Source: Lytechinus pictus
Lineage: Eukaryota
Direction: 5' to 3'
DNA length: 64,000 bases
NCBI RefSeq assembly: GCF_037042905.1
Contig: NC_087245.1
Coordinates: 2,234,001-2,298,000, forward strand
Position numbers and translations under genes: made by a program. Shown here in pieces: positions 3,807 to 44,712 of the stretch (its first letter is position 1; each line of letters begins with the position of its first letter). The notes beneath the pieces are model-generated. The model saw only the letters and a list, made by a program, of their open reading frames with translations. It ran no database searches and was not told the DNA's origin.

Positions 3807-4169
3807 TATGTACTGGCACAGATCAAGGTACCGCTAAACCATACAACAGCGATACTGCCGGAGCAAGGCAACAGTACTATGAAGATTTAAAGGAAAGATA
3901 TACAAACTGTACATACGTTGACGGAAACCTGGAAATATCCTTTCTCCATGAGCAAGAATATGATCTTAGCTTTCTCTCATCGATACGGGAAGTCACAGGA
4001 TATATTCTCATTCTCTTGACGTATTCCCGGGTGATACCGCTCACAAACTTACGGGTTATCAGAGGAACAAAGCTTTACGACGACAAGTACGCCCTCTATG
4101 TTGCATTGACGTTTCATACAGGAGATCCAGAAATAGCTACAGAAGAGATTTGGTTAACATCATTACATG
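3807..4169 (+). CDS. EGFR: EGFR exon 1 in window (L1 domain)
   Basis: ttacag|...|gtaagt; VCTGT...[13 protein letters not shown]...LTNLRVIRG. Confidence 0.95.
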
Positions 4170-7100
4170 GTAAGTCTATTGATAGCTATGTACCTAGTTA
4201 TTATTTGTTGTCATACTTTGTTCATGTATTATTTTTGGGGTTTTGGTTTTTATTTAAAGTTAAAAACTTAAAAGATAAATATTCTATTAATGATGGGAAT
4301 GTTTCCTGGATCCACATCGGCTCCTGAATAGCAGAAGTGAATAATATGAAAAATCAGCCAAGTTGAATGAAACAATTTCCAGAGATTCTGAAATAGCCTT
4401 GGGTAAAAGAAATAGACAATGAGTGTTGAATTGGTTATTGGTCTAATCTCACTCTGTCTAATTCTATGCTATCAATAAGAAGTCTTGATATCTAGCTGCT
4501 CCTTGGCCCATGCACCATTTTGGTATATATTTGAAATATTTCCATTGGTCTAAAACCTCTTTGTCTCTATGGTTTTATGAGCTAGAAGACCACAGGAGAA
4601 ACACCAAATAGGTTTTTGACAATGGGGTAGTTCATTCAAACAGGTAGTGACCAGTATTTCATAAAAGGTGTTTAACACAAAAAAGCATAATGGGGTTTAA
4701 ACATCCTCCTTGGTTCTTTAAGCACACTAAAATATTGGGAATATTCAAATGATGCCTATGTGTACATTTAGGGAGAATAAAATTGGATCAGATTCAGCAT
4801 TTCAGCATGGGGCATCCTTAAAAACAAAGGCGAGGTAATATCTATGGTACACTTAAATTCTCAGCTGTGATATCAGATCAATGATTTTTGCTACGCTGAT
4901 GTTTTTGACATGATCTGAACTGTCACATACTTCTTCCATAAATCCCAATCAAACGCTCGTATCGATGAATGATGATTAAACCAGGCGCGGATCCAGGGGG
5001 CACGTGCCCCCTTCCTTTTGAGAAGCAAAATTAAAAATTTGTAATGTAAAAATGCCATGAAAACAGAGGTGTGGCCCCTCTTTTGAAATTGAACACCTTT
5101 TTTTTTGGCTTGTCAAATTTTTTCGGGTACGAAATATCCTTAATTTGTTGTTGAAAACCTTTTTTTTTTTGGGGGGGGGGGGGCTTGTCAAAATTTTCCT
5201 CCGAAAAATTCCCCCCCCCCCTTTGGAAAATCCTGGATCCTCCCCTGATTAAACATACTGATTTTAAGATTAAAAAAGGAATTCAATCATATTAATCATG
5301 GTTTCATTCAATTTTTAAACTAGTATTGCTAAAATTGTGTTTTTTCTTGCAGAAATCTTGAAAGGAGATGTATACTTTCATCAGAATAATCAACTGTGCT
5401 ATGTACAGACCATTGCCTGGGATGACATGCAACCTGGTTTGGTAGCCAACTTCTCAGTATGGGATGAACATCCACAACGTAACTGCTTAGGTGAGGACTA
5501 TTTCATGTGCTTACAGCAAGAAAGGCATTAGCTACTTAGAAAGATAAACTTATTTTGCTCTTTAAATCTGTTAGTTGAGAAAATTTTTAAATAATGATAC
5601 ATAGGGACGTTGTCTCTGAGTATTTTAAAGATTACTAATGCAGTCATTGTATTCTATATGGTATACATATCCATAATTTTTATTTATGGAATGCAAGTAC
5701 TTCTTTTATACACAATTTGATATGTGCAAGGTCAGTGCCACTTCCTCTTGTTAAAGTAATTTATAATTATTAATGTTTATCTTTGTTCATCTTCTTTTAC
5801 ACAGAACACCAATGTCATGAATCATGCAAGGGTCGATGCTGGGGTCCAGGAGAGGACCATTGTCAGATATGTGAGTAGACAATGTAATACATCATCATTC
5901 TCCTCAGTTATTTATTCATAATATGAAGATATTAAGCTCTATACATTTTGGTCCATTGAAATAGATAATATTTGAAATATTTCTAGAAGAATAAAGGGAA
6001 GCTGTTTCAATTGATTTTGCATTATTATTTTCTCCAAATCACTCAAAACTTTATTATCAGTCAATAACTTTGATCTATGGTTTGTATGTTTGAAAAGATA
6101 AAGCATGACATTTTTTTGCAGGAAGGTAAATTCTCGTCTTGTCACAAATGCTGAATGAAAGGCATTCTGTCATCTAACCTATAATACTGGAAATTTCTTT
6201 TTGTGAGTAAATGTCTAAATTTGTCCATGGATTTTACTTTTCATGTCTTGGTACACATAAATATTAAGTCTTTCCCTTTTCCTCTCTATAGTAACGCTAA
6301 AAGATTGCAGCTCAACATGCGACTACCGTTGTCGAGGTCCTACTCAGGCGGACTGCTGCCACAGAAGTTGCGCTGGGGGTTGCACCAATTCTTCTAATGC
6401 TGGATGTCTGGTGAGTTTGAACCCTGACCTTCTTGCGGGTGCCATTTACCAAACCACTTAACCATGTTGTCATATGCTGACAGGGGTCAGGTAGCTTTAT
6501 AAAAAAATTTGTGTCCATTGTCTTTCAGCATGTTTGTTACATGGATTTCACAGTAGTTTCGCCAAAAGTCATTGATTTGTTCGTACAGAAATGGCAGGAT
6601 TGGATGGTAAAAGATGCTGAGTGGGTTTCCTTTGGAAATGCACATTCAAAAAAGGTTCACACAAGATGCCTTAGATCCCTAGAATTACAAATTCACTTCA
6701 CTTCTTACTCCCTCTTTGCTTCACCTCATTATTTACTCCAGAATATAGGTGTCTTGATATCTCTCCTCCATAAAGGTTATAGGTTCTGTGCATCATTTGT
6801 TGCATTATTTCTGTTCAGATTTATTCATAACCTAAACTCAACTCTTTCTTCCTTAGGCTTGTCGGCAATTCTCACTGGATAACACCTGTGTGGAAAGCTG
6901 TCCTCGGCGATACGAGTATGATAGAAATACATTCACCAATGTGGAGAACCCAAACTTCCGCTATTCCTATGGTTCCAGATGCCTCAAAGACTGTCCAAGT
7001 AAGATTTTAATCTATAAGTGAACTTGAGGGAGCATTTCCTGCAGCATCTTGGTAATGGTTATCACTGACTAATCTTTTATTATCCAATCAGATGCAAGAA

Positions 7101-10100
7101 TTTCATTAGCACATAACAGGTGCTGGTGTTGAGTAACATTTCATGGAGTATCTTGTGTGTGGTATTCATTGACAAATCTTAGATGCAGATTTTTGTGTAG
7201 CTTGTGACAGGTGCCCGTGTCTAAGGAGCATTTTATGCAGCATCTTGTCAGCACTGACTAATCTTCTGGCAGCCAATCATATTATAGGATTGATGAAAGA
7301 ATAATACATTATGATATGATTCAACACTTTAGAGAAAACTATTTAAGTGACATGGTTATGAAAGGCATATATGACAGAACAAATAGCCATTGTAGTGCTC
7401 CATCAGAAGCAGAAGGGATCATCTACAAGATGTATATTGTTTGTACCTCACTATTCATCATTCTTTGATTTCAGATAACGTCTTGATAGATGGCGATAAC
7501 TGTGTGAAGGTTTGTGGGCCAGGAAAGAAAGAACAAAACAACCAATGCATTCCATGTGATGGCATCTGCCCAAGCAGTAAGTAATCCTTCACTACACAGT
7601 TCAAGGCCAGTTTAATATAGTAGTATCTGGACTATCCTAATTGCAAAATGGTAGGACCAGTATTGATGAACTAGTGTATTATTTATGTTAGCTGAACTGT
7701 TATATTTTACGTACTAAGAATATTGCTTTCTGATAGGTGGAAGGTGATCATGTGACCCCTCATGTGAAACACAGGGTTTCGCTGATCTTTTTTTTAAAGT
7801 CAACATCTTTAAAGTGTATAACAAACCTTATCATCTGGAGGATGAGCAAAATGATTTTATTTTTTTGGAGGTGGGGGGAGTACATTGCACAGTTTATCTT
7901 GCTTAAAAGTTTGTTTCACTGAGTCATTATCTTACTCAGAAGTGCACTTAGATAAGTGTGAACAAGTGTTCCTTACCAATGCAAAATAATTGCAAATACA
8001 AGTTCCCACCAAAAGTAAACAGTTGTAGGCCCAATTGGTAGTAGTAAGTTGGAGTAGGAATTCACGTTTATACAAATAATGTGTTCTTAACACAGCGGAC
8101 AAGCAAAATTTTGGGAGTCGCTGCATCCGATTTCATCTGCTCCAGAAATGGACAAAATTAGCAAAAACAGAAAATAACGGACGTTTGTAGTATTTAGCGG
8201 GGATGTTAAATGGATGTTCATCGGAAGCCTAGTGGATGGCAGTTCTGAATGGGTTACCTGGGGATTTGAAAACTTTATATACAAGATGCATACGCTTAAA
8301 TCCTTTCTATTTCCGCGCCACTAACGATGTATAAACGTTCCATGTACCTTATTTTTCCTCTCTCTTTCCGTTGTTCAGCTCGAACGTATGAAGCACGCTT
8401 GCAATGAGTACGCAAAGGATGCGTAGTGTTTTCCATCGGATGCCAAGATTTTTGTACGTTTTACATCCACTTTGCATCCGTAAGTGCAGTGGGACCGGGC
8501 CTTTAGGTACCAGACTAAAATAAACTTAGATATTTTAAGAGCCTAATATGTGTAGTACATTGATTGAATATCTTTTGACTATGTCTCACACTTTCTTCTG
8601 TATTTCTCTTCTTTTTTTTCACGTAACAGCTTGTGAAGGGATAGGAGACGATACATCATTATCCTCTGTTCATATCAAGAGTAAACAGTTTGATAATTGC
8701 ACCAAGATTAACGGGAATCTAATCATCACTTCACATACCTTTACTGGGTGAGCTAGTCACATGATCTATTCATACCTTGGTCAGGTGTGGATCCAGCTGG
8801 ATTAGACACAAATGTATTGCGAGGCCAACTATTATGAAATAACAATATGCCCCTAAAATGGTATCATGTCTAATACGGCTGGATCCGCGCCTGATTATTT
8901 TACTGCAATGCCACACGTAGAACGTTTGACTTGATCCCCCAAAATGGATTTAATTTCTTGTGTTGCATCCCTACCAGTCAAAGAAATTTGCACCTCATTG
9001 GATACCAACTGAAACAATAAAACATTCTCTAACTATCCACAACAGCGCCATCTTGTGACTATAATGTTGATTATTGATTTTGCACTGTGCATTGTTATAG
9101 CAGGGAGTGAAAAATGGACAGTAGGGCCTACCTGTAAACCTGCTATACGAGATGCTTGGACTTTATCAAGGAAACATTCTCTAGAGAGGGTATAGATGAA
9201 AGGAAGTAGTATGTAATTATAAGAATAACAGTCTATCTTGACATGAATTTTATAAGGCTGCAGTCTTCAACCATACTTACAAATTTCCGTTTTTTAATCA
9301 AAATTTCTTATTTCTTTACATAGACCTTTACTCCAATGAAAAGGTACCATTTTATGAATAAAGATTTGAAAATAGATATCAAGAATGAATTGTGAATATT
9401 ATGAATATTATGAATATAAATATGAATGCTGAGACTTGGTATAATGAATAGGATAATAACAAAAATATTTTGTAAGACACCATGTTCATGTACGTACAAA
9501 AGCTCTGGGTCTGATATAAACAAGTGAGGTGAAAATAGGTGAAAAGGATATGTCTTAATGTTTGACCTCTGATTGTATATCATAGCAGGTTTGAAATTTT
9601 CTTTGTTTCATTTTGTTTGTAATAGTTAGTATGTAAATCTTTTCACGTGTTTTCAAATATGATTATTTTTATTATTATTATTATGTTTATTTATTCTTTC
9701 AGTGATGGTTTCGTAGGTACCACCCCCGTTGAGCCTAGTTCCTTGGAGATCTTTAAGACGGTGAAACAGATAACTGGTTACCTGTCAGTCCAAGGACTTC
9801 ATCATGCTTTCACCAACCTCTCTATCTTCAGTAACCTAGAGAGGATTGATGGTCGTAACTTGTACGGGTAAGGAATATGATAAATAAATCTTTCTTGCTG
9901 AAGTTCCAGGTCTTTATCTGGCCCTGGTTCCTTATATATGTTCAGATTTTTGAATTCAGATAAAACTGAAAATTGAGATGATTCGACAAATCATGTTTAT
10001 TTAAATTAGATGACATAGAGAAGTCAAACTTTAAAACCAATCAGTAAGAATAAAAACAGAAATTTAAGCTCACAAATAAGAAGCTGCTGGCAGCTACAGT

Positions 10101-13100
10101 GCAAACTCAGATGAATAACCCAAAATTTGTTTATCTTCAAGCTATGGGGAAGGGGGGGTGAGGTAATATGCAGTATACTTGTGACAGGAGTATTGAGGAA
10201 CATACATCATTTTTATTATGCTCTACTTGCATTAATCCCATTGTTTTATTCACATTATTTTTTTTTCATATATTTTCAAATGTGTTGTACATGTCAAGAG
10301 TTCTAAGTGAAGTAACAGCTTACCAGTTTTGTTTTGGGAAACAGGGAGTAAGGATCTTTTTTTTTTCATTAGTTTTTTCAAGGTTAAAAGGAAGGGATAT
10401 TTTCAGATTTCATTTATGGAATTTCAAGTAATGTATTGTAAATAATCAAAACAAGATAAAAAAATCCTCGCTTGTCAGATTGCTTTCATTACAATGATAT
10501 TAACAAACAAAGCATACCAGGAAAAACACTAACAAACGATTATATACCAATGATGATCAACAGTTATTTCTCTACTGATGGGGTTTTTTGGGGGGGAGGG
10601 AGGACAAAATGAAAAAAAAAAAAAAATGATGGAAATTCATATTAATTCAAACATGTCGATCTTCTACAAAGATCCGAGTGAACAATAAAATTATGAAGAA
10701 GCTTCATTTTCTCTGAAAATTAATTTCTTTTTAATTTCTCAGGTATTACCACCAATGAAAATAACAAACCCTTGTTTACATATATTTATATACACTCCCT
10801 GATGTCAAGTCTGTATTTCAAAAAATAAAGCATGAATATGTATTCACGTCAGCAATATATCATGAATACAAGCTAAGCCTCATACCTTGCTATCATTTAA
10901 ATTGTGACCATGTTGAAAGTATAGGAGAGGTGGTGGACATTAATTATATAAACCAAGTGTGTTGCCATGGAAATGGGGGCCCTAAAGCTTATTAGTTGTG
11001 ATGCTACTTCACCTACTTCATAACAAACATATACCACAGGGTCGGCGGTGCCAAGGCGGATGCTGTATACATCACATCAACCAACTTGGATTTCTTTGGT
11101 ACGACGAGTCTAAAGGAGGTATCCAACGGTGACATCACAGTCACAAGCAATTCAAAGCTCTGCTACTTGCAGAGGCCAATGTTTAAGTCTATCAGAAAGT
11201 CAAACCGTCAGACTTTAACCGTTACTGGTAGTCGCAGTGAGGAGGAATGTAGTAAGTATGAACCCTCCCTCAACGTCCTCTCAATCCGAATGGATCGTCT
11301 GTATATATATATGCACCCCTCGCACCAAAATATCCCAACTGGATGCTTGTATCTCTTGCATGTTGTCCTTGCATGCCTTGCCCTTAACATAAGTTACTAA
11401 CCTGATAATGATGATAAACTCTTTGGTCAGCAGGTGGTATCTTTAGGTCTCAAAGAACACCACAGAGCAGCAGTGATGAAGGAAGGACTCCTAGGTCATG
11501 CTGTAGAGATGCGTCGCTAAGCAGCTATGTTTCATTGAAGTATATATATACTTTGCACTTGTAGCCCTGGTATGCACATACTATATATCAAGTAGATCGT
11601 TCGAGGGATGAATTTCTTGGCTATTTTCTCATGGTGTCAATGTGAAAAGTGTTTTCTGTATATTTCATTGAATTTGATGATATGTACTGTCTAATTATCT
11701 CTCTGTTTATTGATGATTTAGAGAGCCGCCGTATGCCTCGCTGGCCATTCTTGATAACCTACATCTCGACTCCTTGAGCATGGTCTCACTTAAAGAGGTC
11801 AAGCTGGGTGGGGCGTACGTCCAAGATAACCCTAATCTCTGCTATAGCGAGGATATAACGTTTAAACACATCATAAATTCAGAGTATACTGTCTCCTTCG
11901 TAAGCAACAAACGTTTGGAAGAATGTAGTGAGTATACCCAAACACTATCCCGCTCCTTCAAATAAAACCCCTTAAAATACCCAAACTCAACCCCATAATT
12001 ATCTCAACAATCCCTGAGTGCCAGTTATTATATCCTGTGTGGTGTTAATGTCTTTGACACACAGTACTTTTATAAGATGGGATACATATTAATGCATGTT
12101 TGTTTATGATATGTGGGTTTATGTAATATTTAAGATGTTGGGAAGCTGTAGAAACTAACCACTGCATGTATGAATTGTATGGTGTTGCATGTCATGTTAA
12201 TAATAATGTAACATTATAACATCCCTGCATGATGTGACCTTGTTGGTTTAAATACTGATATGAGATGGTATTCACTTTGCAAAGTCATTCTCAAAAGAAA
12301 AAAAAAAGTACCATGAATTCCTCATAAAGATATTTTCATTGCTCCAGTTTAACTTCAGGATCCATAGACAAAGATATCACTGAGATACAAGCTATTTTTT
12401 TCATTTCAGTTGAAAAACAAACAAAAAAACTTTTTATTTGAGAATGGGTTTTGCTATGTTGATATAATATAGCCATTTTATGCCATGTATGTATGCGTGA
12501 TGAATTTTTTTTTTGCATGTGAATGTTAACTTCACTTCTTCTTAATATCAGCATGTTTGCATGTTTGAATCTTTTTCTTCACCTCACTCTCACTGCCTGT
12601 TTTTGTTTGTTATATTACACCTTCTCTGCACTACCTATATTCACTATTGCATGCCTGTTAACCAATGCATGAATGCTATTGCATGAATACTATAACATGA
12701 TGCCACTGCATGAATATATTTACCTTTGGTTTACTTGGTTTAAGATGGGTTTTATCTTCCTTTTACCTTGCTCTTCTTTCTTATCTTTATTTCTGAAATA
12801 TTTTCAAATCAAGGAAGATAGTCTCTCTTGACCAATCACTACTGTTTTATAGAGAGATGCTATTTGCAATCTATTTTGCTTCACTTGCATGACATTGCAT
12901 GTATGCACCCCTTACAATTAATGGACTGACCCATTAAACTTCACTGACCAATCACAGTCTGCCAAACACTTTTGCACACTCCACACACTGGTCAGAAGTA
13001 AAGCTTTAGAAGGAATACAAAGTGCAATATTACGGAGAAAAGAGGACAACAATTATGATCTCAACTTTATAACTTTTATGATATAGTGTAAAAAAAATTG

Positions 13101-15982
13101 TCACAATATGATTTTTTTTTCATGAAAAAACTTTTAAAATTACTTTTTATTCATATTCTTTCTCCTCCAAGTTGTTTGGAATTTTAATTAAGCAAGATTT
13201 TCAGGGATGTAATTGAATATTAAGAGAATATGATACAATGCCCCTCTTATAGGGAGGGAGTAAATTTAAAAATTAATGGCTTTTCCTCTGACCATGCACA
13301 TAGTTTCCTTTTGTCAACACAGTTTACTGATGCACAACACAATGTATTAGATATTTTGACTTTAATTTGTGTTAATATTCTAGTTCTGCATAGTTATGTG
13401 TTGTTTTAAGCACACATTTGATTTTTTTTTTCAATTTAATTTTGAAGTTTGGAGTTAATTATCTTCTGTTTCTGACTTTCTTTCTTAAAATATAAACAGA
13501 AAAAAAAGAATGTAAATATCTAAAAGATTATCCTGTGATGGGAATATCAGCTTGAATAATTCAATTATAATGTAGATTTATAGTACTGAAGTTGTATCCA
13601 AAAAGTCTTAGATGAAAAATCAAACCGTAATATATGATAAATACCATGTTCACATGGACACATACATAGACCCATCAGGTCCGTTGTATATTTAGGAATA
13701 AACACAATACTATTAACTATTCACTATTTACAATTCACACATGATTGTATGCATCACACGTCAAAGTAACATATCTGTGCATGATACAATTTAAATCCAA
13801 AGCAATATGTGCCTTATGTTTCTCATTGCAGACTGCGCTAACTCGTATGTACATCTGTCTTGTTATAGATAACACTAGATATTAACTGTATATAGCTATG
13901 GAATGAAATATAGTGCAGATTACTAATATAACATGGGGTTAGACTCAATAGAAAGAAGTAACCTATTAGGAATAAGGATGGTTTAGATTGGCATATTACT
14001 ATTGCCCTTTAATATAATGATATTTGGTCCCAGTGCCCTAAAGAAAGAATTAATAGCATTCCTCTCCTGTTATTGTAGCATATCAGATTGCCTTCCATTT
14101 TTAAGAGAAATGATATCTATTAGGAACAAAATTATTTCACCCAATCATTCAATCATGAAGTTTTGTCAACTTGTCATTATTTTGGTGTAGTATTAAATAC
14201 ATTTAATTGTAAATTAGTTGAAATGATTTTACTAAAGAAAATTTAAACATAGACTTTTAAGATATTACATTTACAATTGCCTTGATTCCACACACACAAA
14301 AAATATTCCATTCTAAAATCAATTGGCATAGTAGTTAGTATTGATGAAGAATTGAGGTTTTAGTTTTATTTAATATCCTGCTTCCCCATAGCCTATTTTA
14401 TAGTAAAATCCATGCGTAACTGGGACATTCTAATGCCACTGTAACGTTGTAAAGGCCTATCTGTTCATGATGCAGTAATCTTAACAAAGCAGCTTTGTCT
14501 TTACTGCTTCCCTTCCCCCACTCCATCCCACCCCACCACCTCTACCCCTCCCTATCCAAGTCCTCCAGCACATCAATAATTCCTTAGAAAGTATTACAGC
14601 GTGCACCTACCCGTATTACCCTACCTCTGTGTTTCTTGTCAAGTCACCCCAAACCCTCCCTTCTACCTCTGAGACATGTAATACAAAGCTTTGTGATGAA
14701 TTGAAAATATGAAAGAACACTTCTGATTGGTTCCTGCTCAGTATTTTGAACCAATTACGTGTTTAACATTGATCTTGATTGGTCAGTCTATTGATCACTA
14801 ATCTTTTTGTCACTGATCCTTGATCTTCCTTATAATACTGGAGTGAGATAGTACAAATAAAGTAAAGTTGATATGTGACTATAATGCTGCAGAAAGAAAT
14901 CTTAAATTGATATATAAATACTCTGCATTTTGGGGACCAGAATAATGCTTTAGAAAGAAGCTTTGATCAAAACATAGATATTTCCAGACTTGTTTTCATA
15001 TGCTTATTTAGAGATTTTCAGATTGTTCCTCTAAAAATTCAGATCCTGCCGAAGCATTAACATTAAAGCATTATAATGTGTGAATAACATCATAAGTCAC
15101 ATATAAATTCATGTGATCTGCTTATGAATATTAGGCATGGTATTACATAAACAGGAATCTTATACATATATATGAGTATGATCCATTCTACCTTTGGAAA
15201 TCAAGCATAAATATACTCATCGAGCAAAACATTGTGTTTTGAGAAGCAGAATGTTTTATTCTATTAAGATAAAATTTGGAAAGTAGAAAACTTTCTTAGA
15301 CAAAATTATCAGCAAACAGATGAAGTATTGTTGAATCCAACACCCAACAAATGGTTGTTCCCTACCCCCTCCGGGTCTATCCTACAATTTCCATCCCTAA
15401 TCAGCACTCTTAGGATACCCTGTACCTCTCCATCCTACCACGCCCACTTTCCAGTATACCAGCATGTTATAGCAAATCCCCTTGATAACTCCACTTCGTT
15501 CATTCTGCGTTCATCATCTCATACGGCGTTGGCTTATACTCTCTGGATCATGCATTTTACGCTCCCAAAATTGAACACATTGGAATATATCTTCTGCTGG
15601 ATGGCTACTGCGTATGTGTATCTTCAACTGCGCTTTCTTTCTGGGGCTTGGTTTTACTTACCAATTAATGTGACTACATTTCAGCATTACTGTTAGTATT
15701 TCATTGATGGGATTAATGGCTTATCTTTCAATTTTTTTTTTTCATCTTCTGTGCGCCAGGCCAGCTGTGCTTAAAGTGCCTTTGTACTGTGGATTTTCAA
15801 ATTGTTCTACAACTTACAGAGACAGCATCATTGAAGTATACTACATTTAAAAATACAATCCTACTTTAATTGAATAATCTAGCATTAGTTTGTGCCATTT
15901 CTGATTAGCAGCTATTTGAGCAACTTTCTGATCTTGAATTTTACATGTGATCAGATGTTTCTATTTGAAATTATACATGAAC

Positions 15983-16019
<37 letters not shown>

Positions 16020-19000
16020 TGATTTGTATAAATTCTTGTCAAATTTTGGTTCACCCACAAGTATAGGAAAGGATACACATATCCCCAACCCAATTTTTCA
16101 GAGAAAATAAGGAGCAGAAACGTATCACATTTTAGCCCTAAGCATTATTCACCCATATGCCTGGAACTTCATTATTAACCAATCCTATTCAATAAAGAAA
16201 TTCATTGTTTTTATATATTATATATCTTGTCTGAATTCATGATCTCCCAGATGGTTGAATAACTCCTTTATCGTGATATTAACACACTGGAATGCTGGAT
16301 ACACAAAAACATCAAATGATAATACATTCATCTTTATATTTTTGTGTGCCTATTCATTGTCATTATGACTTAAGTCATGAGTTTTAACTTTGACCCCCCC
16401 CCCCTAGAAAATTTGCAAAAGATATTTTAGACAAAAATTGCAAGAAAAAATGATAATTCTGTTTATTAAAAATGTATATCTTTTTTTCAAAGAATGCGCT
16501 TTCAAAATCCAATTAACTTATTTATTCTATTTGCTTCAATATTTATTATCTTTTCAATCAATGGAAAAAAATATGCTATCTTTCTCAGAAACAGTTCTTT
16601 AATTGTTGTAAACAACAGTGATATTCTCAAAGGAATTCTATGCCAATACTTGCAAATTTTCCTCTTGCTTTGTTCGAGTTGGTATTGCTTTACTGAGTTT
16701 TCAGTATCTTTTCTACTGGTTCAAGGGATTTTCTTGTCTTCATTCTAAGTGTTTTTTAGTCTTTTAATTTTGAGTTTATATTGGTTGACGTTTGGCAGTA
16801 AATGTATAACTGCTATCCAAGCAGTATTTGACAATCAGTATCCTGGAATCCTGGGAAGATACCATGTTTGTGAAACATTGTGTATTCCTGTTTTCATAAG
16901 GTTCAAACATAAAGCAGTGATGCATCATACTATTTGAAGCTACTTTTCAGTATTAAAAACATTTATATTTAGTGTGTGTGAATATCTAAGACCCCTGTTA
17001 CAATCGGATACCGCTCGAAACCGTACCGATAGGGGAGGGAATGAACGCTGTGATGTGAACAGACCACATTTCGGACTCGGTCCGTTCGCGAAGCTAATCC
17101 ACCAATAATCCAGTCAAGGTTGCAAGTGGACTCGGTCGGGTCTCGGGTAGGAAACTTTCAGATGTAACAGGGGTCTTAGTGACAAAGAACCTTTGGTCAT
17201 TGGTGATAACTACTGCCCAAGTTTGCTGCCAAACTAAGTCAATTAATATTCATTGACTTCAGTTTGAAAAGAAACACACATCTTAACAAACTGAAGTTAT
17301 TCATTATCTTTTGTTTTTCTTTATAATTTCAGCACTTTTTTATCTAATCACCTTTGTTTTTGTTTTGATTTGGGTTCATTTTCAGCCATCTTTATATTTT
17401 CATTTTTCTTAGCCACTTTCATCAAGTGTCATCACTGATTTTCATTCTTCATTCTATTTTTATGATTTCATATTTTGTTTTTGTTTTAATCTTTCATTTT
17501 CATTTTATCGATGGTGATGGGCTACTACTCTGACGCACAACTTTGATAAAGTGTTTCTTTACTTTTTGATCTCACAGCACCTTATATTTACTCTTTTGAT
17601 CAACTGTTGGATATATTTTGATATGTACTTATTGTTCCTGGTGTGACAATTTTGATATTGTATGTGTTGTGTGTGAATGAAAAAAATGGAAAGTCTGGTC
17701 ACAATTAATCTTTATTTTGTCTATACAACTTCAGTATGGTTTGCAGTAAACTAGCAAAAATATTTATTGTCATCTACCCAAAATATCTAAAAACCATCTT
17801 TACAGTTCATTTGATGGGGATATGGTATAATTGTTAATTGTTAATATAATTGCTAACCGAAATGCTGAAAGTTATTGCTGCAACTTGAAAATTGTTTTTT
17901 GGGCATATTTTAGGGGCAATTCAGATTTGTACTGATAAGTTTAACCCCCCCCCCCCAAAAAAAAAAAGAAGCATAAGATGAATTTATTTGAGTATAAAGA
18001 TTATTTGTCATCCAGTCTTTCTATTTTTGATTGATTTTATTCTCAATACAAAGAGCACAGGATTGCACATTTAAATAGCAATATCCATGGATATTATGAT
18101 TTTCCTTTTTAATCTTACAAAATATTCATATATGTATATCACTATTTATTCCTTTATTTCATTGTGATGGTATGACTTGCTGTATGTTGATGAAGAAAGC
18201 ACTTTTTTTTATCCATGGATGAATTAACCAGATATTTTGTAAGAATGACAATTTTCAAAAACTTTTTTTGAAGGAAATCATTGATAAGTGAGTTTTAAAT
18301 TGTTGTGTATCTCAAAAGTGCTTATACATACAAAATACCTTTCACTGAAAGATATAACTGTGTAACCAGTTATACCTTTCACTGAAAGATATAACTGTGT
18401 AACCAGTTATACCTTTCACTGAAAGATATAACTGTGTAACCAGTTATATTTTTATTCATGAAATGTGCTGAAGTACAAGTTTATTACTTGGCTGAAACTA
18501 TTTTACAATGAATATATAATCTTACAAAATGTCTTGTTGATTCTAATGCCAATATTAGTGAATAATATTTCACATTGAATATTGTAGCATATGCCAGAAA
18601 TATTGCATAATAGTTATAGCATACTTGCTATATAGCTTTACCTGAGGTTTAATCTGATTTTTCTACAATATTCCTAATTATTTTCAAGTGGAATAAATAA
18701 AATATGATGAATGATTTTAACATTTCAAATTAAGTAAATAGTCCATGTTGACAAATTGAACTAATATTTCAAATCTATCAAACGGTTTTCCATTTGATAG
18801 TGTAAGTAGTGATCAATACAAGCCTCTTAGACTATCAAATTATGCAATATTTCATGGGGTTTATCTATTGTTTAACATTTTGCACATGTTTTTTGTAGGG
18901 TGCTTGTAATGCTATTATTATAATACCTCCTAAGAAAAGTGGCAATTCCATATCCAATTTCAAAGCCTTATTATTCTCAGCAAATTTGATTAATACTAAA

Positions 19001-22000
19001 AAGGTATTGTTTTGTCACAGGCAAACCATTTAAGCTGAAATTTGCAGATCCAGTTGGCCATATGCAAAGTGATATTTCTATTACCCTTCTACATTATAAT
19101 TCACTGAGTGTTTTGCTGAAAAGTAGAAGGACCCACTTCTTACTCAACATCCCTGTCATTTAAAACAACATTCATATTCATAATATGAAACTAAAGCCGC
19201 TGTTGCAATGTGAAATATAATGGTTAATGCCACTTTTCTTTAGGAATGGAAGTTTTTATCTTTTCATATATTGGAACAATGAAACAAATTTGCATCCATG
19301 TTTTTTTTATTTATAATTTGTAGATGTAGTAAACGTTAGAAATCATAGTGCTATGTCCTTGTACCGTTTGTCTGTCCTGTTCTTGTTGCCTGCTTGTAGA
19401 TGATTTAGATGTAGTAAAATTGCATGAATGACTAGAACACTAGAGCAAAACAATTTAAATAGAACTGAAAGAGACGATGGATGCTAAACGATGCCTCTTT
19501 TGGTTCTATTATAACATATTGTATCGCTTTAGCGTTCCAGTCATTCGGCAATTTTACTCCAATGAGTGCGTGTCAAAAAGCTTCAGTATGTCTGTTTTTA
19601 AAGCTATTATGCGGTTTTACAGTACCAAACACTTATTTAACTGAAGTATTGTTCAGTTAAATGAAGGATATTTAATAGAGTACCGTAGAATACCTGCCGA
19701 AGTATGAATTGTATTTGCCTGTTTAGATAATAGTATCACTTGGAAAATAAGAGAAATCAGTTACATTTTACGATCTTGTCTGAGTCAAAAAGAAACATAT
19801 TGGTGTTACATCCACAAAATAGAAACCAGATTATTGTACAATCAAATTATTTTCTGTGGCTGTTGGAGTCAATTTAGAACAAAATACCTGCTAGATAAAG
19901 AGAAATGTAACAGATTTATCTAACTTCATTTAGATGCATGATCATGATGAAATATATTTTCCAAATAATTTTTAATACTTTCAGGTATCTACTAGCAGTA
20001 TATTATAGAAATGCCTTTGTTTGATTCTGAAAATTTACAGTCATTGTGATATTTCATATTAGCTTGAATTTAGAAAAGAAATGTTTTCTCTATTTTATTA
20101 AAGATACATATATATTTTATTTTGAGAAGAGAATAGAGCTATGAATTGAAATCTTATCCATGCTTTATAATTCAGTTATTACTTTTAAGTGTTTTTTTTT
20201 TATTTGATAGGGTGATCAGAAGTTAATTATTTGTTTCAGTTTCGTAAAGAATATAATGACACTAATCGAAGAAGGGTCTAATGTCATAGTATTTTTATTG
20301 TATAATAGTTTGGCAATTATTTGTAAATCCTGGAAAGAATTTAATAGAAAGTTATGTTTGCAGTTAAATATTGATATTTACAATTTTGAATAGTAGGTAT
20401 ACCATGCACTGGCCATTTATTTTTTAGGAGTACAATTATATTTGGTTTAACTACTCTGCTTGTGCCAGGTAATTCACTTCATTATTTGAAGAGCACTTTA
20501 ATAGAGAATTCCGATAAAGTAAATGTTAATTGTAATATATTGAGCAAGTATGATTATCCGTCATTATGAAGTGTCATTCTGTGCAAATTTTAACTATGTT
20601 TATTTCTTATTCTCTCCAAACTAAAATCATTGTACATGTAGTTGCTGAAGGTAAAGTCTGCCATGAGCAGTGTGCTGATATTGGTTGTTGGGGACCAGGA
20701 CCACAGCAGTGTGCTCAATGTAAAAACGCTATCATTGGTGACACTTGTATCGAGGCCTGTGACTTGGAAAATGGGTGAGATATTACAAGAACTACTGCAT
20801 ATTGGTTCATATTCAAGCAATACTTGAGAGAGCACTTTGAATATGTAGGGGAAGGCGGGGTAAGTTGAGCATAGGGGCAAGTTGAGCCACCGCCCCCAGG
20901 CCAATAATGAATGAGTCAGACATTATGGTGGTGTCATGTATTGATGACCCATTACATAACCATTAACCCCACCACATTGTTTTCAACTTTGAAACAAAAA
21001 GTATATTTTTAGAGGGAAAAATACAAATTTCAGCCAAAAAAGTAAAAAAGGGTGTGAAATAGATAAGTGTTTTTTTACACACACACTTCTTTACATATAA
21101 TAAAGCATAAGAACAACATTGTCAGTCCAGGTATGGATCTTCATTCTTGTCACAGTCTTTTACATGATGGATACATAAGAAATGTGTGGATGCGAAATTA
21201 TCGCATTAAGTTCGGACTGGGGTAAGTTGAGCCAGCAAACATGGGGCAAGTTGAGCCATGGTAATTCTTATGGTAATGTAAATAAAAACACAATCAAACC
21301 TTAAAAAGCCATCGATATGCAGGCAGAAAAGAGCAAATTCACATGACAGTTCTTTTACTTTTAGAGAATGTTGGTATTTTTAGAGAATTAGCAAGTGAAA
21401 AGACTTTAAATAAAAAATTGACATGCTGGTTCTTCCCGCATACATTTTGTACATAGTTTTTGTGGCTCAACTTACCCTCGAAGGTGGCACAACTTACCCA
21501 ATAGATGGGGCAAGTTGTGCCACTTGACATCGTTTTTTTCAAAGGTCACAACGACTTTCAGTGTGGGGGTAGAAAGTTGTATATAGGTGAACAAGATTTC
21601 CCAAGAATCATATTTAAAGGCAAGGTACTTATTTTCACAATATTATTAGTCATATCAATTCTATCATGCAAAATGCAAAAAGTGTCACAACTTACCCCGC
21701 CTTCCCCTACTGTTTCTGTTTTATTCACCTTTCATATCACAAAATTTGCTTGTACTTTAAAGGGGAATTAAACCTTTGGAACAAGTGGGCTTGTTTGGAA
21801 ACAGAAAAATCAAGGAATAAGATCAAAGGAAGTTTAAGAAAAATCGGACAAATGAGAAAGTTATGAGCATTTGAATATTGCGATCATTAAATGCTATGGA
21901 GATCCTCCCATCGGCAATGCGACAAAGATGTGTGATGTCACGTGTGAACAACTTTCCCTTTGATGGACTACAAAATACCCCCAAAATGTCTCTATTTGCT

Positions 22001-25000
22001 CTTTCGTATGGTGATACAAACTCTTAGTCCACAATGCATTCTTTGAAAATCTGTATTACATGCCCTCCTATAGAAAGAATACATGATCTACTTATAGATG
22101 TGATAAAAGAGGCAGTTTAAGTGAAATATATACTAAATTAATGGCAAAGTTGTTCACATGTGACATCACACATCTTTGTCGCATTGCCAATAGGAGGATT
22201 AACATAACAATAATGATCTAAACTTCAAACGCTCATAACTTTCTTATTATTTATTCATTTTTTCTCAAACTTTCATTGATCTGTTTCTTTGATTTTTCTG
22301 TTATTGCAAAAGCTATCTTGTTCCAAAGGTTTCATTTTTCGTGTAATTAAAGGGGAATTAAACCTTTAGAACAAGTAGGATTGTGTCGAAACAGAAATTT
22401 AAAATAATAAGAACAAAGAAAGTTTGAGAAAATTGGACAAACAATGAGAAAATTATGAGCATTTGAATATTGCAATCGATAATGCTATGGAGATCCTCCA
22501 ATTGGCAATGCGACAAGGATGTGTGATGTCACATGTGAACAACTTTCCCTTTGATGGACTATGAAATACCCCCAAAATGTCTCTTTTTGCTTTTTCTTAT
22601 AGTGATACAAACTCTTTATCCATGATGTATTCTTTAAAAATCTGTATTACATGCCCTCCTATAGAAAGAATATATGATCTACTGATAGATGTGAAAAAAG
22701 AGGCAGTTTAAGTGAAATATATACTAAAGTTATGGGGAGAGTTGTTCACAAGTGACATCACACATCTTTGTCGCATTGCCAATATGAGGATCTCCATAGC
22801 ATTAGTGATCGCAATATTCAAATGCTCATAACTTTCTCATTTTTTGACTGATTTTTCTCAAAATTTCGTTGATCTGTTTCTTTGATTTTTCTGTTTTCAC
22901 AAAAGCTATCTTTATTCCAAAGGTTTCATTCTTTTAACTATTACTATTACTATTGCCTAACTCATATGTTGTCATTATCAAACATAATGTATTGTTTCAT
23001 CTCTAAGCTAATGTTGTACATTCATTGAATAGGATGCAATTTATCTTTGTTTTGATGAAAGTCTTTAGAATTCAATGACGTTGTATGTAGCACAATATAT
23101 AAGCATCAATCTCACAAATGAAAAGCAAAATTCTTTTCCATCAAACATGATCTTGGACCTTCTCTTATGAACGAATTTATATTACTTTTGTATTCTTGGT
23201 TGTGTTTTAACTTTCTTTCCAGTCAATATGTTGAGATGGAGGCTACTGATCAGGCTCCTGCGGTGTGTGAACATTGTGATGCAGAATGTTCAGCTGGTTG
23301 CTCAGGCCCTGTGAGTATATTTCAACCCTCTATCTCTCATACTGGGGAATGTTTTATCTGGAATTTATATGAAATAAAGATATTTCCCCCAAAAAAATTA
23401 CTGTTGGATAATTTTAAGGTTTGAGTAAGGGAATTAAAAGTTATTTGAAATTGTTTTGTAAAATGCTGGCTGAAACAAGCATTGGCTTTTAGGGTGTACC
23501 AAACCATTTTGATTTTATTATATCTTGTATTTAATTATATTTTATGATTTTTATGGTTGAAAAAGTGAATTGAATTAAATTGGTTTTGATCTTAGACTCT
23601 CCTATGCATGATTGTTACATAAGCATATAATGTGTAGTATGAGGTACATGTCTTCCTCTTAAACCTATTATTATAAATCTGGTCTTTCTATGAAAATATC
23701 TCTGTAATGATACCTTCAACAAAGCCTGTAGGTCTGTTGAACTTCTTTGTGATAAATTTTGATTAATATCATTGCACTGAATACTCTTTGACCTTTGACT
23801 TCGTGACCTATGACCTCCATCAGGAACCAGACCAATGTGACTGCCGGGCAGACTCATCGGGTCACAACTGCAGAAGAAGGTGTCGTCATGTCCAGGATGG
23901 TCCATACTGTAGGGCAGAGTGTCCAGAACTCAAGTTTGCCAATTCTCAGAACAACTGTACCGACTGCCATTCAAACTGCCTCAGAGGGTAAGATTGAAGT
24001 CATGTTTATTTTTCCTGTAGGTATTGCTTGTATCTAGCTCCAATCTGAACCCCATCTGCAAAGCCACTAATAAACTCTAGATTGGGCAAAGCAATGGGTA
24101 TTTGCAATAAGAGCAGTCACCTGTCAGAGACATTTGCTGAAGCGTTGAAAGTAATCATGAGGACATAGCTATATTACATTGAACTTATGATTTCACATGA
24201 CCCATTTACTTGTATTAAAATGAAAAGCATGTCATGAATCGACTAGTGAGTGAGTATGTATATGTATGTTAGTGAGTAGGTGTTTGAATGAGTGAGTGAA
24301 CAATGAATACAGAAGAATAATTGATAAGTAATAAAAATACATCAATTGACTTTCTTTGTAGAGTCAAAGAGTAACCAAATATTTGAATCAAATGTATTTC
24401 TTTGTATGTGTAGGTGTGATGGTCCAGAGAATAATCTTGGTGCTAAAGGTTGTTGGGAATGTCCTCAAGTTATGCTTGACTTCACCAGAAATGTGGTAAG
24501 TGACCCAGACTACAACTTTGGTGTTGAACACTGCTACAATGATTAATCTTCATAATCATAGCTAATAATTCATATATTTAGTAGTTAAACATTTACTATA
24601 TAAATGTTCAGTCTTGCATTTAATAAAGCATAATTTTGTTCTTTCCAATAAACAGCGTTTTGTTAAGGACATCTTTGATACAGAATACTGCATATATTTT
24701 CGGATTTTGGGTATAGATCTTTTCATGATTTACAATAAATGCAGAGATCACAAAGAGCTCATTTTATGAATTTCAATTAGTGAATCTGTAATATATATGT
24801 ATTATGATTTCACAAATTGGTTCCAAAATGATAACCAAAAAGTTTTGACAGTCAATGCATTTTTTTTGCCAGTAAATGATTTATTAAACTAAAATTTACA
24901 TGGTCCTCCAACATCTTCAGGAGTTTATAATTACAATGTGATATCAGATCAATTCAAAGGTTTAAAAAAGGATGTAAAAATAAACATAAATTTTGTTGTA

Positions 25001-28000
25001 AACTAACTTGAAGTAGATATTGCTTGTTATAACAGCTGTTCCATACATTGTTCACACCGTTCCTCTATCTATATAGTTAGATGTTTAAATCCACAACCCT
25101 TATACCCTAGATTATTTATTAAACCACTTTATTTCAAACTCTCTTTATAGATATATTTTCTTATACAATGTTTATACAACATTTTTTTTTTGTCATTTGC
25201 AGATTGAGTGTATGCTTATTAATACTCCTTGTGGTGATGATTACTTCTATGATCGCATCTCTCATTCAGAGAAATCAGATCCTCTTGCTGGGTCAGTGGT
25301 AAGTACATCATCTTTATGCAGATAAAACATCTATTCTCTCAGATATTTATATAATTTTCTCAGTATGTTGTAAATTAACTCTGTAAATGTTATATCCAGT
25401 ATTGAGACTTGTCTTGAAATATATCATCAATCTAATATTTTAAAGCTAATTTTCAACTCTTCGTTTTACGCATCAACATAATGCACAATAGTTGCAAACT
25501 TTAGGAAGTTTGAGAGCTCAGCATAGAATTGAAATTTGAGCCAGAAATAACAAATTTTAGAAGAATATAATTAGGGGAAGGCGGGGTAAGTTGAGCATAG
25601 GGGCAAGTTGAGCCACCACCCCCAGGCCAATAATGAATGAGTCGGACATTGTGGTGGTGTCATGTATTGATGACCCATTACATAACCCTTAACCCCACCA
25701 CATTGTTTTCAACTTTGAAACAAAAAGTACTTTTATAGAGGGAAAAATACAAATTTCGGCCAAAGAAGTAAAAATATGATGTGATATAGAAAAGTGCTTT
25801 TTACCCACACACGTCTTTAAATATAACAAAGAAAAAAGAACAATATTGTTAGTCCAGGTATGGATTCTCATTCTTGTCATAGTCTTTTACATGATGGATG
25901 CATAAGAAATGTGTGGATGTGAAAATATCGCATTAAGTTCGGACTGGGGTAATGTGTGCCAGCCAACATGGGGCAAGTTGTGCCATGGTAATTCTTATGG
26001 TAATGTATAATAAAAAATTAAAAAAACCTTAAAAGCCATTGATATGGAGGCAGAACAGAGCAAATTCACATGACAGTTCTTTTACTTTTAGAGGATGTTA
26101 GCATTTATAGAGAATTAGCAAGTGAAAAGTCTTTAAATAAAACGTTGACATGCCGGTTCTTCCTGCATACATTTTGTACATAGTTTTTGTGGCTCAACTT
26201 ACCCCAGAAGGTAGCACAACTTACCCCACAGATGGGGCAAGTTGAGCCATTTGACAACGTTTTTTTCAAAGGTCACAATGACTTTCAGTGTGGGAGTAGA
26301 AAGTTATATATAGATGAAAAATATTTCCCAAGAATCAAATTTAAAGGCAAGGTACTTAATACTACAATATTATTATTCATATCAATTCTAACATGCAAAA
26401 AGTGTCACAACTTACACCGCCTTCCCTACAGTTTGTTTCTAGACAATTGATTTCAGAATGGAATTCTGTGTTTCTTTGATTTATTTATGAATAATAATTT
26501 GTATGGATATTGATGTGACTAATGACCTTTGACCTCAACAGATATGTCAGCAATGTGACCCTATGTGTATTGGATGTGATGGGGCAGGACCTCGACGATG
26601 TAAGCAGTGTAAACTATTCCAACAAGATGATGAATGCGTAGATGAGTGTCGGACTGGCTTCTATCCGGATGTGGATGATGTGAGTGGAAGATTTTGCCTC
26701 TTATTTGCATTGATACAGATTGGCAGTTATCAGTGCATCGTTTGGTATAGGAAATTGTGTTTTATAAGGATATACCTGAGCTTGTGAAATGTCAAATAGT
26801 AAATTTTTTTTTTAATTTAAAATATTAAATATTTCCAATGGTGGTTACCGATATAACAAGATATCTTTCTCTCCACCATGCCCTATATTCATTAAACCTG
26901 AATAAGTTTAGTTATCATCTACTTTACAGTGGCCACATTATACAATTAGGAGATTACTAGACTTATCAAGGAAAATCGGCCCTGGGAAATAAACTAGACA
27001 TTACATGACAATGCATATACAAATGAATATAAATAGTTGCTCAAATTCACTGCCTTTCTCACTCTTATTACCATTTTCTATTGTTTTTTTTCACTTTGGA
27101 GGAGAAAAGGTCACCAAATTTCAATATGTCTGAAGTTTATTATCTTTTTTAGGTTTACCCAGTAACTAATAAGGCCAAATGAAATGAAATTATCCTTGTT
27201 TTTATCTTTCCTCTAGATTTGTCAGCCCTGTCATTCACAGTGCAGGAATTGCTTCAATGGTACAGAATATGATTGTCTTCAATGTGAATCATATACAATT
27301 AGGACTAGTTTCAACACTGTAAGTCATCCACAACTTCTTCATTCTCCATTATGATAATTCGCCATATTTTGATTTTTTTTTTCTCCCAAACTTTTCAATT
27401 TTTTCAGAGAAAATTTTACCTCTTTGGTCAAATGAACTTGTTCTGTGCATGAAGGATTACACCATCACATGTAAAGTGATAATGTTGTGATGTGAATTTG
27501 CCAGTTAAGAAATTTATATAACATTTCTTAAAAGAACATGGTTCTGGAACTCTAACTTATATCTCAAAAAGTTGTAATAGTTCTTCAAACTATTCATTAT
27601 CATGCTGCATATCTTCAGATACACTTCATGATATTAAAGGAATAAAGTCTAGCAATCGTATGACACATTTGGAAAGGTGATCATTTAGATTAGCCATTCC
27701 CAAAAGTTATTATTAACATGTTGTGGTGATATATGTGCAGTAAATTGGTACCTAGCATTGTTTGAAAATGGTTTTGCACCAGGATTACAGCCAGATTAAT
27801 CTCAGAAATAATGACAATCAGTGCCTTAAGCACTCTGTAGAATAGATATGAGCACTCATTCATAGGTTCTTCATATTTATTTTATTCAGAAACATAATAA
27901 TATGCTTTTTGTCAAGGTACACAATGTATTCTTTCATGGGCATATGTTGGTCCTGAAAAGGACCACCCAAACTTGATGTTTTGACAAGCATGTTCTTGTC

Positions 28001-43764: not shown

Positions 43765-44110
43765 TCTTCTTTCTTCTTCCAGAGTAAGGGCTTCTACAAG
43801 GTGATGAAGATAAACGCACTGGTTGAGTGTGTATGTTTGGAACTTTTCACATACTGTTATTTCATAAGCTCTTGTTCTTGTTGTGCAGGTGCGAATATAC
43901 TTGTGTAAGTAAAAACATTTTTGTTTGTGGTGTTTACCTTTGCATCCCTCTCAAGAAGGCCTTGAAGGCGGGCTTGAAAGCATCAACCGAGAGGTAATGG
44001 GCTGAATCCTGTCGGAGGTTGTTCCAGTCCTTACAGGTTCTTGGGAAGAAGAAAGAAGCATAGGCCTGACTGCTGCATGGGGTATCCTAAATCCAGATAT
44101 GTGCCCCCTA
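43765..44110 (-). mobile_element. CR1-like LINE 3' remnant
   Basis: - strand translates YASFFFPRTCKDWNNL; (GAA)n-like tail. Confidence 0.7.
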
Positions 44111-44124
44111 GTTGAGGGATTTTG

Positions 44125-44427
44125 TTGATGATAATGATGATGATGATGATGATGATGGTAATGATGATGATGGTAATGATGATGATGATGATGATGTTGA
44201 TGATGGTAATGATGATGATGTTGATGATGGTAATGATGATGATGATGATGATGTTGATGATGGTAATGATGATGATGTTGATGATGGTAATGGTGATGAT
44301 GATGATGATGGTAATGATGATGATGATGATGTTGATGATGGTAATGATGATGATGTTGATGATGGTAATGATGATGATGTTGATGATGGTAATGATGGTA
44401 ATGATGATGATGGTAATGAGTATGATA
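44125..44427. repeat. (GAT)n compound microsatellite
   Basis: GAT repeats interspersed with GGT/AAT/GTT. Confidence 0.97.
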
Positions 44428-44712
44428 ATTATCTTTATATGTTGTACATTTCTTTTGACTCTGAATATATTGGGTATAGTTTGTGTTCAGTTTGCTTTTA
44501 CATTATTTCAAGCTGGTGTTTCTTATTTACTGGGTTCATTCATGGTTAGCCTTTGTTTCTGACAAAATAACCGTCGATTGTCTATTGAAACTAATTACTT
44601 TATATAAGGCATATCAGCACAGAGGATTATCCTTTGTTCATCTATCGTTGCACACCCCCCCCCCCACAAAAGATTAATCTTTTGTGATGGGGGGTGGATG
44701 CAAAAATAGATA

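Follow-up and report, generated by a model that had tools for sequence, protein, structure and literature searches.

A dense TGCATG cluster at a mutually exclusive exon pair of sea urchin EGFR, probably a counterpart of the FGF receptor splice switch

The EGFR gene and its two alternative exons

The window, i.e., the whole stretch of 64,000 nucleotides of Lytechinus pictus DNA analysed here (contig NC_087245.1, positions 2,234,001 to 2,298,000), contains the coding part of a gene which, as judged from protein identity and domain content, is an EGFR/ErbB receptor kinase (Table 1). Its exons are identical to the L. pictus protein XP_063959883.1 over all residues compared (403/403, 70/70, and 267/267 amino acids), and the Pfam profiles matching this protein (P0008) indicate two L domains, a furin-like region, domain IV, and a tyrosine kinase. 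The coded parts follow each other in the order L1, furin-like region, L2, domain IV repeats, transmembrane segment, tyrosine kinase, and tail, and the gene product aligns to human EGFR chains. An identity as FGF receptor is rejected by the same protein identities and Pfam matches, which assign the gene to EGFR and the exons discussed below to L2.

Table 1. Features of the EGFR locus. Positions are those of the window; all features lie on the forward strand.
Feature	Position	Strand	Remarks
EGFR/ErbB gene, coding part in the window	3807..40210	+	from ORFs, exon model, protein identity, and Pfam; first coding exon(s) not located
Constitutive exon e9, upstream of the pair	9703..9867	+	middle of L2; donor phase 2; 9867 is joined to A as well as to B
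Exon A (9a of the earlier note), 212 nt, 70 aa	11040..11251	+	C-terminal half of L2; joints e9-A and A-e11
Two TGCATG	11357..11375	+	106 and 119 nt 3' of exon A; ~350 nt 5' of exon B
TACTAAC, followed by tandem AG ~30 nt on	11395..11434	+	possible decoy or cryptic acceptor
Exon B (9b of the earlier note), 206 nt, 68 aa	11722..11927	+	C-terminal half of L2; joints e9-B and B-e11 in 4/4 runs
Cluster of 12 TGCATG	12093..12901	+	166-969 nt 3' of exon B; putative Rbfox-binding intronic element
Degenerate 14-nt tandem unit, 3.6 copies	12666..12715	+	TRF score 58, 72% matches; contains 3 of the 12 sites
Constitutive exon e11, downstream of the pair	20642..20774	+	start of domain IV; joints from 11251 and 11927; 8.7 kb after B

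Exons A and B are homologous (31% identity), and both match the Recep_L_domain profile (E=3e-4 for A, 4e-8 for B). Since both are 3n+2 nucleotides long, either exon alone yields an open frame, and inclusion of both or of neither breaks the frame and leads to an early stop. The intron between them measures 470 nt, which makes it unlikely that mutual exclusion is brought about by steric hindrance within a short intron. The acceptor of exon A is pyrimidine-poor, its T fraction of 0.22 being the lowest of the 18 acceptors listed, and that of e11 is also T-poor (0.30). Exon B is missing from the two L. pictus and the one L. variegatus protein records seen, and its description here therefore adds to the former.

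The use of the two exons is documented by four of 21 RNA runs (X1, X5, X19, and X21), which were mapped for splice joints and carry no tissue or stage labels. Among the stranded raw reads of X19 and X21, of which ~6% per run were examined, 24 and 29 span the e9-B joint, and 21 and 19 the B-e11 joint; no read uses exon A, the depth over which is zero, and the share of exon A in these two runs is under about 10-15% at 95%. Both e9-A-e11 (depth 26.1) and e9-B-e11 (depth 30.2) are represented among the contigs of X1, contig depth being a poor measure of transcript level, and those of X5, a run from a related organism, contain spliced exon B, with exon A present only within an unspliced piece. Unspliced intron contigs occur in both X1 and X5 and may represent pre-mRNA or DNA. 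Neither an A-B nor an e9-e11 joint was found in any of the four runs, given that contigs drop rare forms and that joints are listed only from three reads up. As the joints are of either the e9-A-e11 or the e9-B-e11 type, and as some samples contain B only, A and B are mutually exclusive exons which are both used, in a ratio differing between samples. The exon model and the RNA joints thus bear out the status of alternative exons which an earlier note on this DNA had given them.

The intron between A and B also contains a TACTAAC at 11395, which we take to be a branch-point or QKI-type consensus. No joint in the four runs uses an acceptor following it, and ACTAAY is not enriched around the exon pair. 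A possible donor lies at 11570 and would, together with the AG at 11430-11434, delimit a cryptic exon of 135-138 nt with an in-frame stop, for which the four runs contain no joint.

The exchanged segment and its spread among echinoderms

The exchanged segment aligns to residues 434-499 of human EGFR chains, which we take to be residues 410-475 of the mature receptor (offset of 24). Site 3 of the EGF interface is described as involving Phe412 and Ile438 together with Leu382 (PMC3728333), and a supplementary legend names His409, Phe412, Val417, and Ile438 (PMC2834686). By homology, the exchanged stretch covers the positions of the human site-3 contacts Phe412, Val417, and Ile438. In three urchin genera, position 412 is Asp or Glu in the A form vs. 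Ala in the B form, position 438 Thr vs. Tyr, and position 436 Asp vs. Gly. Position 417 shows a fixed difference between A and B in one of two alignments; residues 415-418 differ between the forms in a register that hangs on a one-residue gap, and a variable loop occupies positions 409-412. It may reasonably be inferred from these positions that the exchange alters ligand binding.

A view on the protein records shows that two unrelated versions of precisely this segment, between identical flanks, occur in eight of 13 echinoderm species, representing all five classes: Strongylocentrotus purpuratus, Diadema antillarum (where the versions come from two separate gene models), Amphiura filiformis, Asterias amurensis, A. 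rubens, Acanthaster planci, Anneissia japonica, and Apostichopus japonicus. This count leaves aside short unnamed fragments without the segment (two from the urchin, three from the Asterias, two from the Holothuria, and four from the Apostichopus cluster) and covers 15 of the 16 members of the Asterias cluster. A single version was found for L. pictus, L. variegatus, D. setosum, Patiria, and Holothuria (1-4 records each), which does not imply absence of the other one, because L. pictus itself has both. Outside the echinoderms, a single version occurs in Ptychodera (13/13 isoforms), Glandiceps (6/6, five with a 16-residue extension), Branchiostoma (three kinase-less models), and six vertebrate representatives. 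Both protein forms are already found among the isoforms modelled automatically by RefSeq for echinoderm EGFR/ErbB4-like genes, as in S. purpuratus, where XP_030830508.1 corresponds to the B form and XP_030830509-11.1 to the A form. A tandem exon arrangement is presumably also present in the other echinoderm genomes, as suggested by the protein pairs. Exon B used as a protein query recovered none of 32 candidates, because the B forms sit inside clusters represented by A forms.

Urchin A and urchin B forms are each conserved from Lytechinus to Diadema and constitute the only supported clades of the tree (94/84 and 99/99, respectively). One form of urchins, brittle star, sea stars, and sea cucumber carries an N-terminal loop of eight residues (seven in Diadema), compared to three in the outgroups, and this common long loop hints at a single origin of the exon pair. 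In AU tests, which did not confirm a single origin, a clade of all long-loop forms was rejected (p=0.034), and the same clade without the sea cucumber row was not (p=0.11, post hoc); also not rejected were a duplication confined to urchins (p=0.44) and a clade of asteroids alone (p=0.34).

The loop at the start of the exon is extended by 17 residues in some sea star isoforms and by 16 in Glandiceps (clusters P0018, P0020, and P0024), and this ligand-facing loop is thus a recurrent site of splice variation. Acanthaster has a second EGFR-like model of 854 amino acids without kinase, and Amphiura a second, near-identical model on the same contig (P0019/P0137), each of which may be a partial duplicate or an assembly artefact.

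The TGCATG cluster and the Rbfox gene

All 14 TGCATG coordinates listed in the earlier note are correct, and its estimate of 12 copies in ~810 nt with less than one expected agrees with the 12 observed vs. 0.27 expected in 809 nt, as calculated from the window outside 11252-13000 (21 TGCATG per 62,252 nt; Poisson P=2.8e-16). In 3000 dinucleotide shuffles of 11928-12950, TGCATG occurred 0.83 times on average and five times at most. A comparison with the other introns of the gene (21,407 nt) gives the same picture: there are 12 copies vs. 0.2 expected after exon B, two vs. 0.1 after exon A (P=0.0056), and none vs. 0.3 before exon A. Of the 22 TGCATG in the coding span of the gene, 14 lie within 1 kb 3' of the two alternative exons, and the remaining 7.7 kb of the intron after exon B contain three further copies (1.8 expected). 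Half of the sites of the cluster are more than 580 nt away from exon B, and one AGCATG is found inside the cluster at 12550. The reverse complement CATGCA is absent from 11252-13000, and the two orientations are balanced in the rest of the window (21 TGCATG vs. 20 CATGCA), as expected for a signal read on RNA. When hexamers are ranked by local clustering, TGCATG takes place 11 of 4026 in the window; the ten ranked above it start at 43.8-47.9 kb, in a region of ATG and AT microsatellites to which TRF was not applied. The TGCATG cluster is not a chance accumulation.

The pentamer TCACT occurs nine times at 12272-12945 (1.05 expected; p=1.7e-6 before correction for 1024 pentamers). Two TGCATG (at 35484 and 35542) are otherwise found in a single intron of the gene, one of 473 nt between kinase exons.

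The genome encodes an Rbfox orthologue with an intact and near-identical RRM, as judged from a comparison with solved structures. A short motif has one exact match in the genome, next to exons which yield this RRM, and the orthologue is located on the minus strand of contig C10 at ~22,028,500-22,037,000 (G000:C10; L063, L064 2620-2528). Three RRM exons were found, and 21/22 and 26/31 residues are identical to the RRM chains of RBFOX1/2, the best solved relatives. The Fox-1_C profile had no matches in the genome, its controls being silent as well, and no Rbfox appeared among the best 30 of 93 matches to the RRM_1 profile, because introns split its RRM. The second RRM exon of 93 nt has TGCATG at -63, -38, -9, and +2, and thus resembles the RRM exon that is subject to self-repression in mammalian Rbfox genes, where Rbfox proteins repress the equivalent exon (PMC3126832); the Rbfox-UGCAUG code therefore looks intact in this animal. 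In another urchin, an RBFOX1-like transcript has been reported to be more abundant at the pluteus than at the gastrula stage (PMC5395446). Two of the four TGCATG at the 93-nt exon touch its splice sites, a layout expected for self-repression, and the donor directly following it is weak, with a stronger-looking GTAAG located ~20 nt further on.

Candidate control of exon choice and related systems

According to a 2009 review, Fox-1 family members form the sole group known to recognize (U)GCAUG specifically, downstream repeats of the motif enhance exon inclusion (the more copies, the stronger), and upstream sites repress it (PMC2777236). It is quite likely that Rbfox controls the choice between A and B via the UGCAUG run, whose members should be regarded as candidate sites. 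The cluster would then represent an intronic element with multiple sites for Rbfox of the sea urchin, setting the choice between the duplicated exons: Rbfox would bind to the UGCAUG run of the pre-mRNA, with the 12 sites 3' of B acting as a downstream enhancer, and Rbfox-rich cells would splice e9-B-e11, while Rbfox-poor cells could use A. Transcripts with both exons or with neither would be lost to nonsense-mediated decay, and the two resulting receptors would differ at ligand site 3 and hence in ligand affinity or preference. The Rbfox-controlled switch proposed in the earlier note is partly borne out by the enrichment, its restriction to the sense strand, the mutually exclusive exons with their different use between samples, and the Rbfox orthologue, its direction, "favouring 9b", being a slight favourite. 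The position rule predicts that the 12 sites promote B, and the second exon of SCN8A, which drops on Rbfox loss (PMC12772994, preprint), provides a precedent. Published cases nevertheless point both ways: a UGCAUG in intron 7b of unc-32 selects exon 7a (PMC3585155), and the results text on SCN9A reports more 5b after RBFOX2 knock-down, the wording of the abstract being ambiguous (PMC12772994, preprint). The B direction has a slight edge over its opposite, and Rbfox control and the B direction taken together fall somewhat short of an even prospect.

The most serious alternative assumes the same element and protein with the opposite direction: exon B would be used by default, and Rbfox, when bound 3' of A and 3' of B, would switch splicing to exon A; A would then be joined to e11, with B left out and Rbfox probably assisted by a tissue-specific partner. 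This reading is possible, if less probable, and has several points in its favour. All 14 sites would act coherently, and B may be the default exon, since the two sites nearest to a donor follow A and the acceptor of A is the weaker one, in fact the most T-poor of all those listed. In unc-32 (PMC3585155) and SCN9A (PMC12772994), it is the first exon that is favoured by sites located after the second, and Fox-2 activates IIIb and represses IIIc of FGFR2 (PMC2777236). In organism B, the only close relative covered, the changes listed number two in the first 172 nt after exon A, which include both TGCATG sites and TACTAAC, vs. 21 in the 406 nt before it, a weak difference (Fisher p=0.03). Against an A direction stand the usual position rule, by which downstream clusters are enhancers of the preceding exon, the fact that 12 of the 14 sites follow B, and the SCN8A precedent.

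Much less probable is a role of the sites, bound by Rbfox or by another protein, other than in the choice between A and B, which would then be set by other factors; such a role might be to assist in splicing out the 8.7-kb intron, whose downstream acceptor is weak, or to retain unspliced RNA. The T-poor acceptor of e11, the unspliced intron contigs of X1 and X5 with their possible origin from pre-mRNA or DNA, and the TCACT excess in the same kilobase would fit this idea, but the cluster hugs the alternative exons rather than the acceptor of e11, with no more than three sites in the remaining 7.7 kb (1.8 expected).

None of the motifs of the potential partners QKI, RBM24/SUP-12, ESRP, CELF, PTB, and NOVA is enriched around the exon pair, as judged with consensus sequences which we assumed for these proteins. 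The ESRP-type TGGTG is found once vs. 0.4 and twice vs. 0.9 expected, and the excesses of MBNL and TGC motifs overlap the TGCATG sites. Known structured RNAs are absent (no Rfam matches in 9000-21000), and an RNA bridge or docking-selector pairing was rejected, the inverted repeats being low-complexity A/T or G/C tracts. In a duplex scan, two of four region pairs stayed within the range of six shuffles, and two exceeded all six (-30.3 and -31.5 kcal/mol); the latter are discounted as an RNA bridge, as each of them depends on gappy pairings with the poly-G tract at 10580. The lack of a convincing bridge, and the distance of more than 580 nt between exon B and half of the sites, count against the preferred reading.

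A similarly improbable view holds that the cluster has no function and consists of decayed tandem repeats or the remnant of a mobile element that came to lie in the intron by chance. The 14-nt tandem unit speaks for it, and the absence of a regular tandem array claimed in the earlier note applies to most sites, with their irregular spacing, but not to 12666, 12680, and 12707, which lie within this unit and may have originated by local tandem duplication. There are also 856 TGCATG triplets genome-wide, many of them in repeat families, a number for which the reversed pattern (8122 matches) proved uninformative as control. Furthermore, conservation is not raised in organism B, where differences of 5.8% and 4.7% in the contigs spanning the cluster fall inside the range of the eight intron contigs listed (3.5-7.5%), at a distance too short to decide and with the letters of individual sites mostly not listed. 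A metagenome scan for an orthologous intron returned a single locus (L001), which was discarded as a spurious match, being bacterial-looking and devoid of TGCATG. On the other hand, apart from the 14-nt unit, the sequences flanking the sites are unrelated and the spacing is irregular, and nine TGCATG per 810 nt are left when the unit is masked. Contig C1 contains 30 TGCATG triplets, three of which belong to this cluster, three to one ATG microsatellite, and 24 to other loci; the microsatellite likewise has 12 sites, but none after masking, and the others retain at most five, in a comparison built on tight triplets, which a cluster without a tight triplet would escape. The stretch 11928-13100 is single copy, its sole match in the 812-Mb genome being itself (in a search that skips very common words). 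Only 50 nt with three sites are tandem, and the cluster as a whole has neither the regular period of a tandem repeat nor the many genomic copies of a mobile element. The motif is, moreover, the exact Rbfox hexamer on the transcribed strand beside validated alternative exons.

It is textbook knowledge that FGF receptors switch their ligand-binding surface by splicing, and the reading preferred here, an Rbfox-controlled choice between A and B, would probably make the exon pair an EGFR counterpart of this switch. As in IIIb/IIIc of the vertebrate FGFR1-3, a receptor tyrosine kinase has tandem duplicated, mutually exclusive exons for the second half of a ligand-binding domain, with UGCAUG near the pair (PMC5703972, PMC2777236), and the exchanged exon carries ligand-contact residues differing between the forms, here assigned by homology. 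In contrast to IIIb/IIIc, which is regulated by RBFOX2 and ESRP, the receptor belongs to another family and fold (L2 instead of IgIII), most sites follow the second exon, and the ESRP-type TGGTG is not enriched. By analogy, the pair appears to work like the FGFR IIIb/IIIc switch but is not a member of it; the FGFR2 parallel of the earlier note is valid in this sense only, since the gene is EGFR and the exons encode L2. Sea urchin Fgfr itself is reported to have a single constitutive exon at the IIIb/IIIc position (PMC5703972), in a paper whose main text does not mention EGFR, ErbB, or Rbfox.

Among invertebrates, the mutually exclusive pairs 7a/7b of unc-32 and 5A/5B of egl-15 in Caenorhabditis elegans are likewise controlled by Rbfox proteins (ASD-1/FOX-1) via UGCAUG, and the unc-32 site likewise lies in the intron that follows the second exon of the pair (PMC3585155). 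There, a single site acts together with a partner (UNC-75 or SUP-12), compared to the 14 sites found here. The vertebrate SCN-alpha exons 5a/5b also form a duplicated, mutually exclusive pair, whose second member is followed by several TGCATG, and the direction varies between paralogues (PMC12772994, preprint); they differ in encoding an ion channel and in having three sites and an RNA bridge, no bridge having been found here. The highly repeated downstream UGCAUG cluster of fibronectin EIIIB, which acts as an enhancer (PMC2777236), resembles the present one, but serves a cassette exon instead of an either/or pair. As for partners of the nematode type, CELF-type and GTGTG motifs, which we assumed for the comparison with unc-32 and egl-15, are not enriched in the urchin gene.

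No published description of the EGFR exon pair or its regulation, nor any account of such a switch in an EGF receptor, was found in a search outside of which lay most subscription journals and all supplements, so that alternative-exon catalogues could list the event; the part of PMC13416820 available does not deal with splicing. A strong regulatory signature on a validated, phylum-wide either/or pair in the ligand-binding domain of EGFR is real. The wider proposal of an ancient, phylum-wide echinoderm switch that is thrown by Rbfox, exchanges ligand site 3 of EGFR, and yields two ligand preferences across tissues is doubtful as a whole. Should it hold, FGFR IIIb/IIIc would have an independent parallel in EGFR, in a lineage whose own FGFR is devoid of the switch. 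With a conserved either/or pair in L2, a second receptor family would be seen to have arrived at this solution, and two EGFRs of different function are predicted for sea urchins, sea stars, brittle stars, sea cucumbers, and feather stars, which would be of relevance to work on echinoderm development and regeneration. The unusually dense cluster also lends itself to testing cleanly whether the Rbfox position rule holds at either/or exons, on which the published cases disagree, and the animal is open to morpholino, CRISPR, and reporter work.

Some further features of the window may be recorded. A microexon for an optional 4-residue piece of S. purpuratus isoforms was not found in the window, and a possible second acceptor at ~29378-29396, 18 nt before the transmembrane exon, fits an optional 5-residue juxtamembrane piece of these isoforms. 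Interspersed repeats with high two-strand read depth and loose ends occupy parts of the introns (~14300-15100, 16980-17150, 19400-19620, 20840-22950, and 25570-26420), with related copies at ~20845 and 25575 as well as around 21750-22950. The long intron also contains a perfect tandem repeat of 37 nt x 3.1 at 18335-18448, and a long ATG/CAT microsatellite (43950-44560) lies downstream of the gene.
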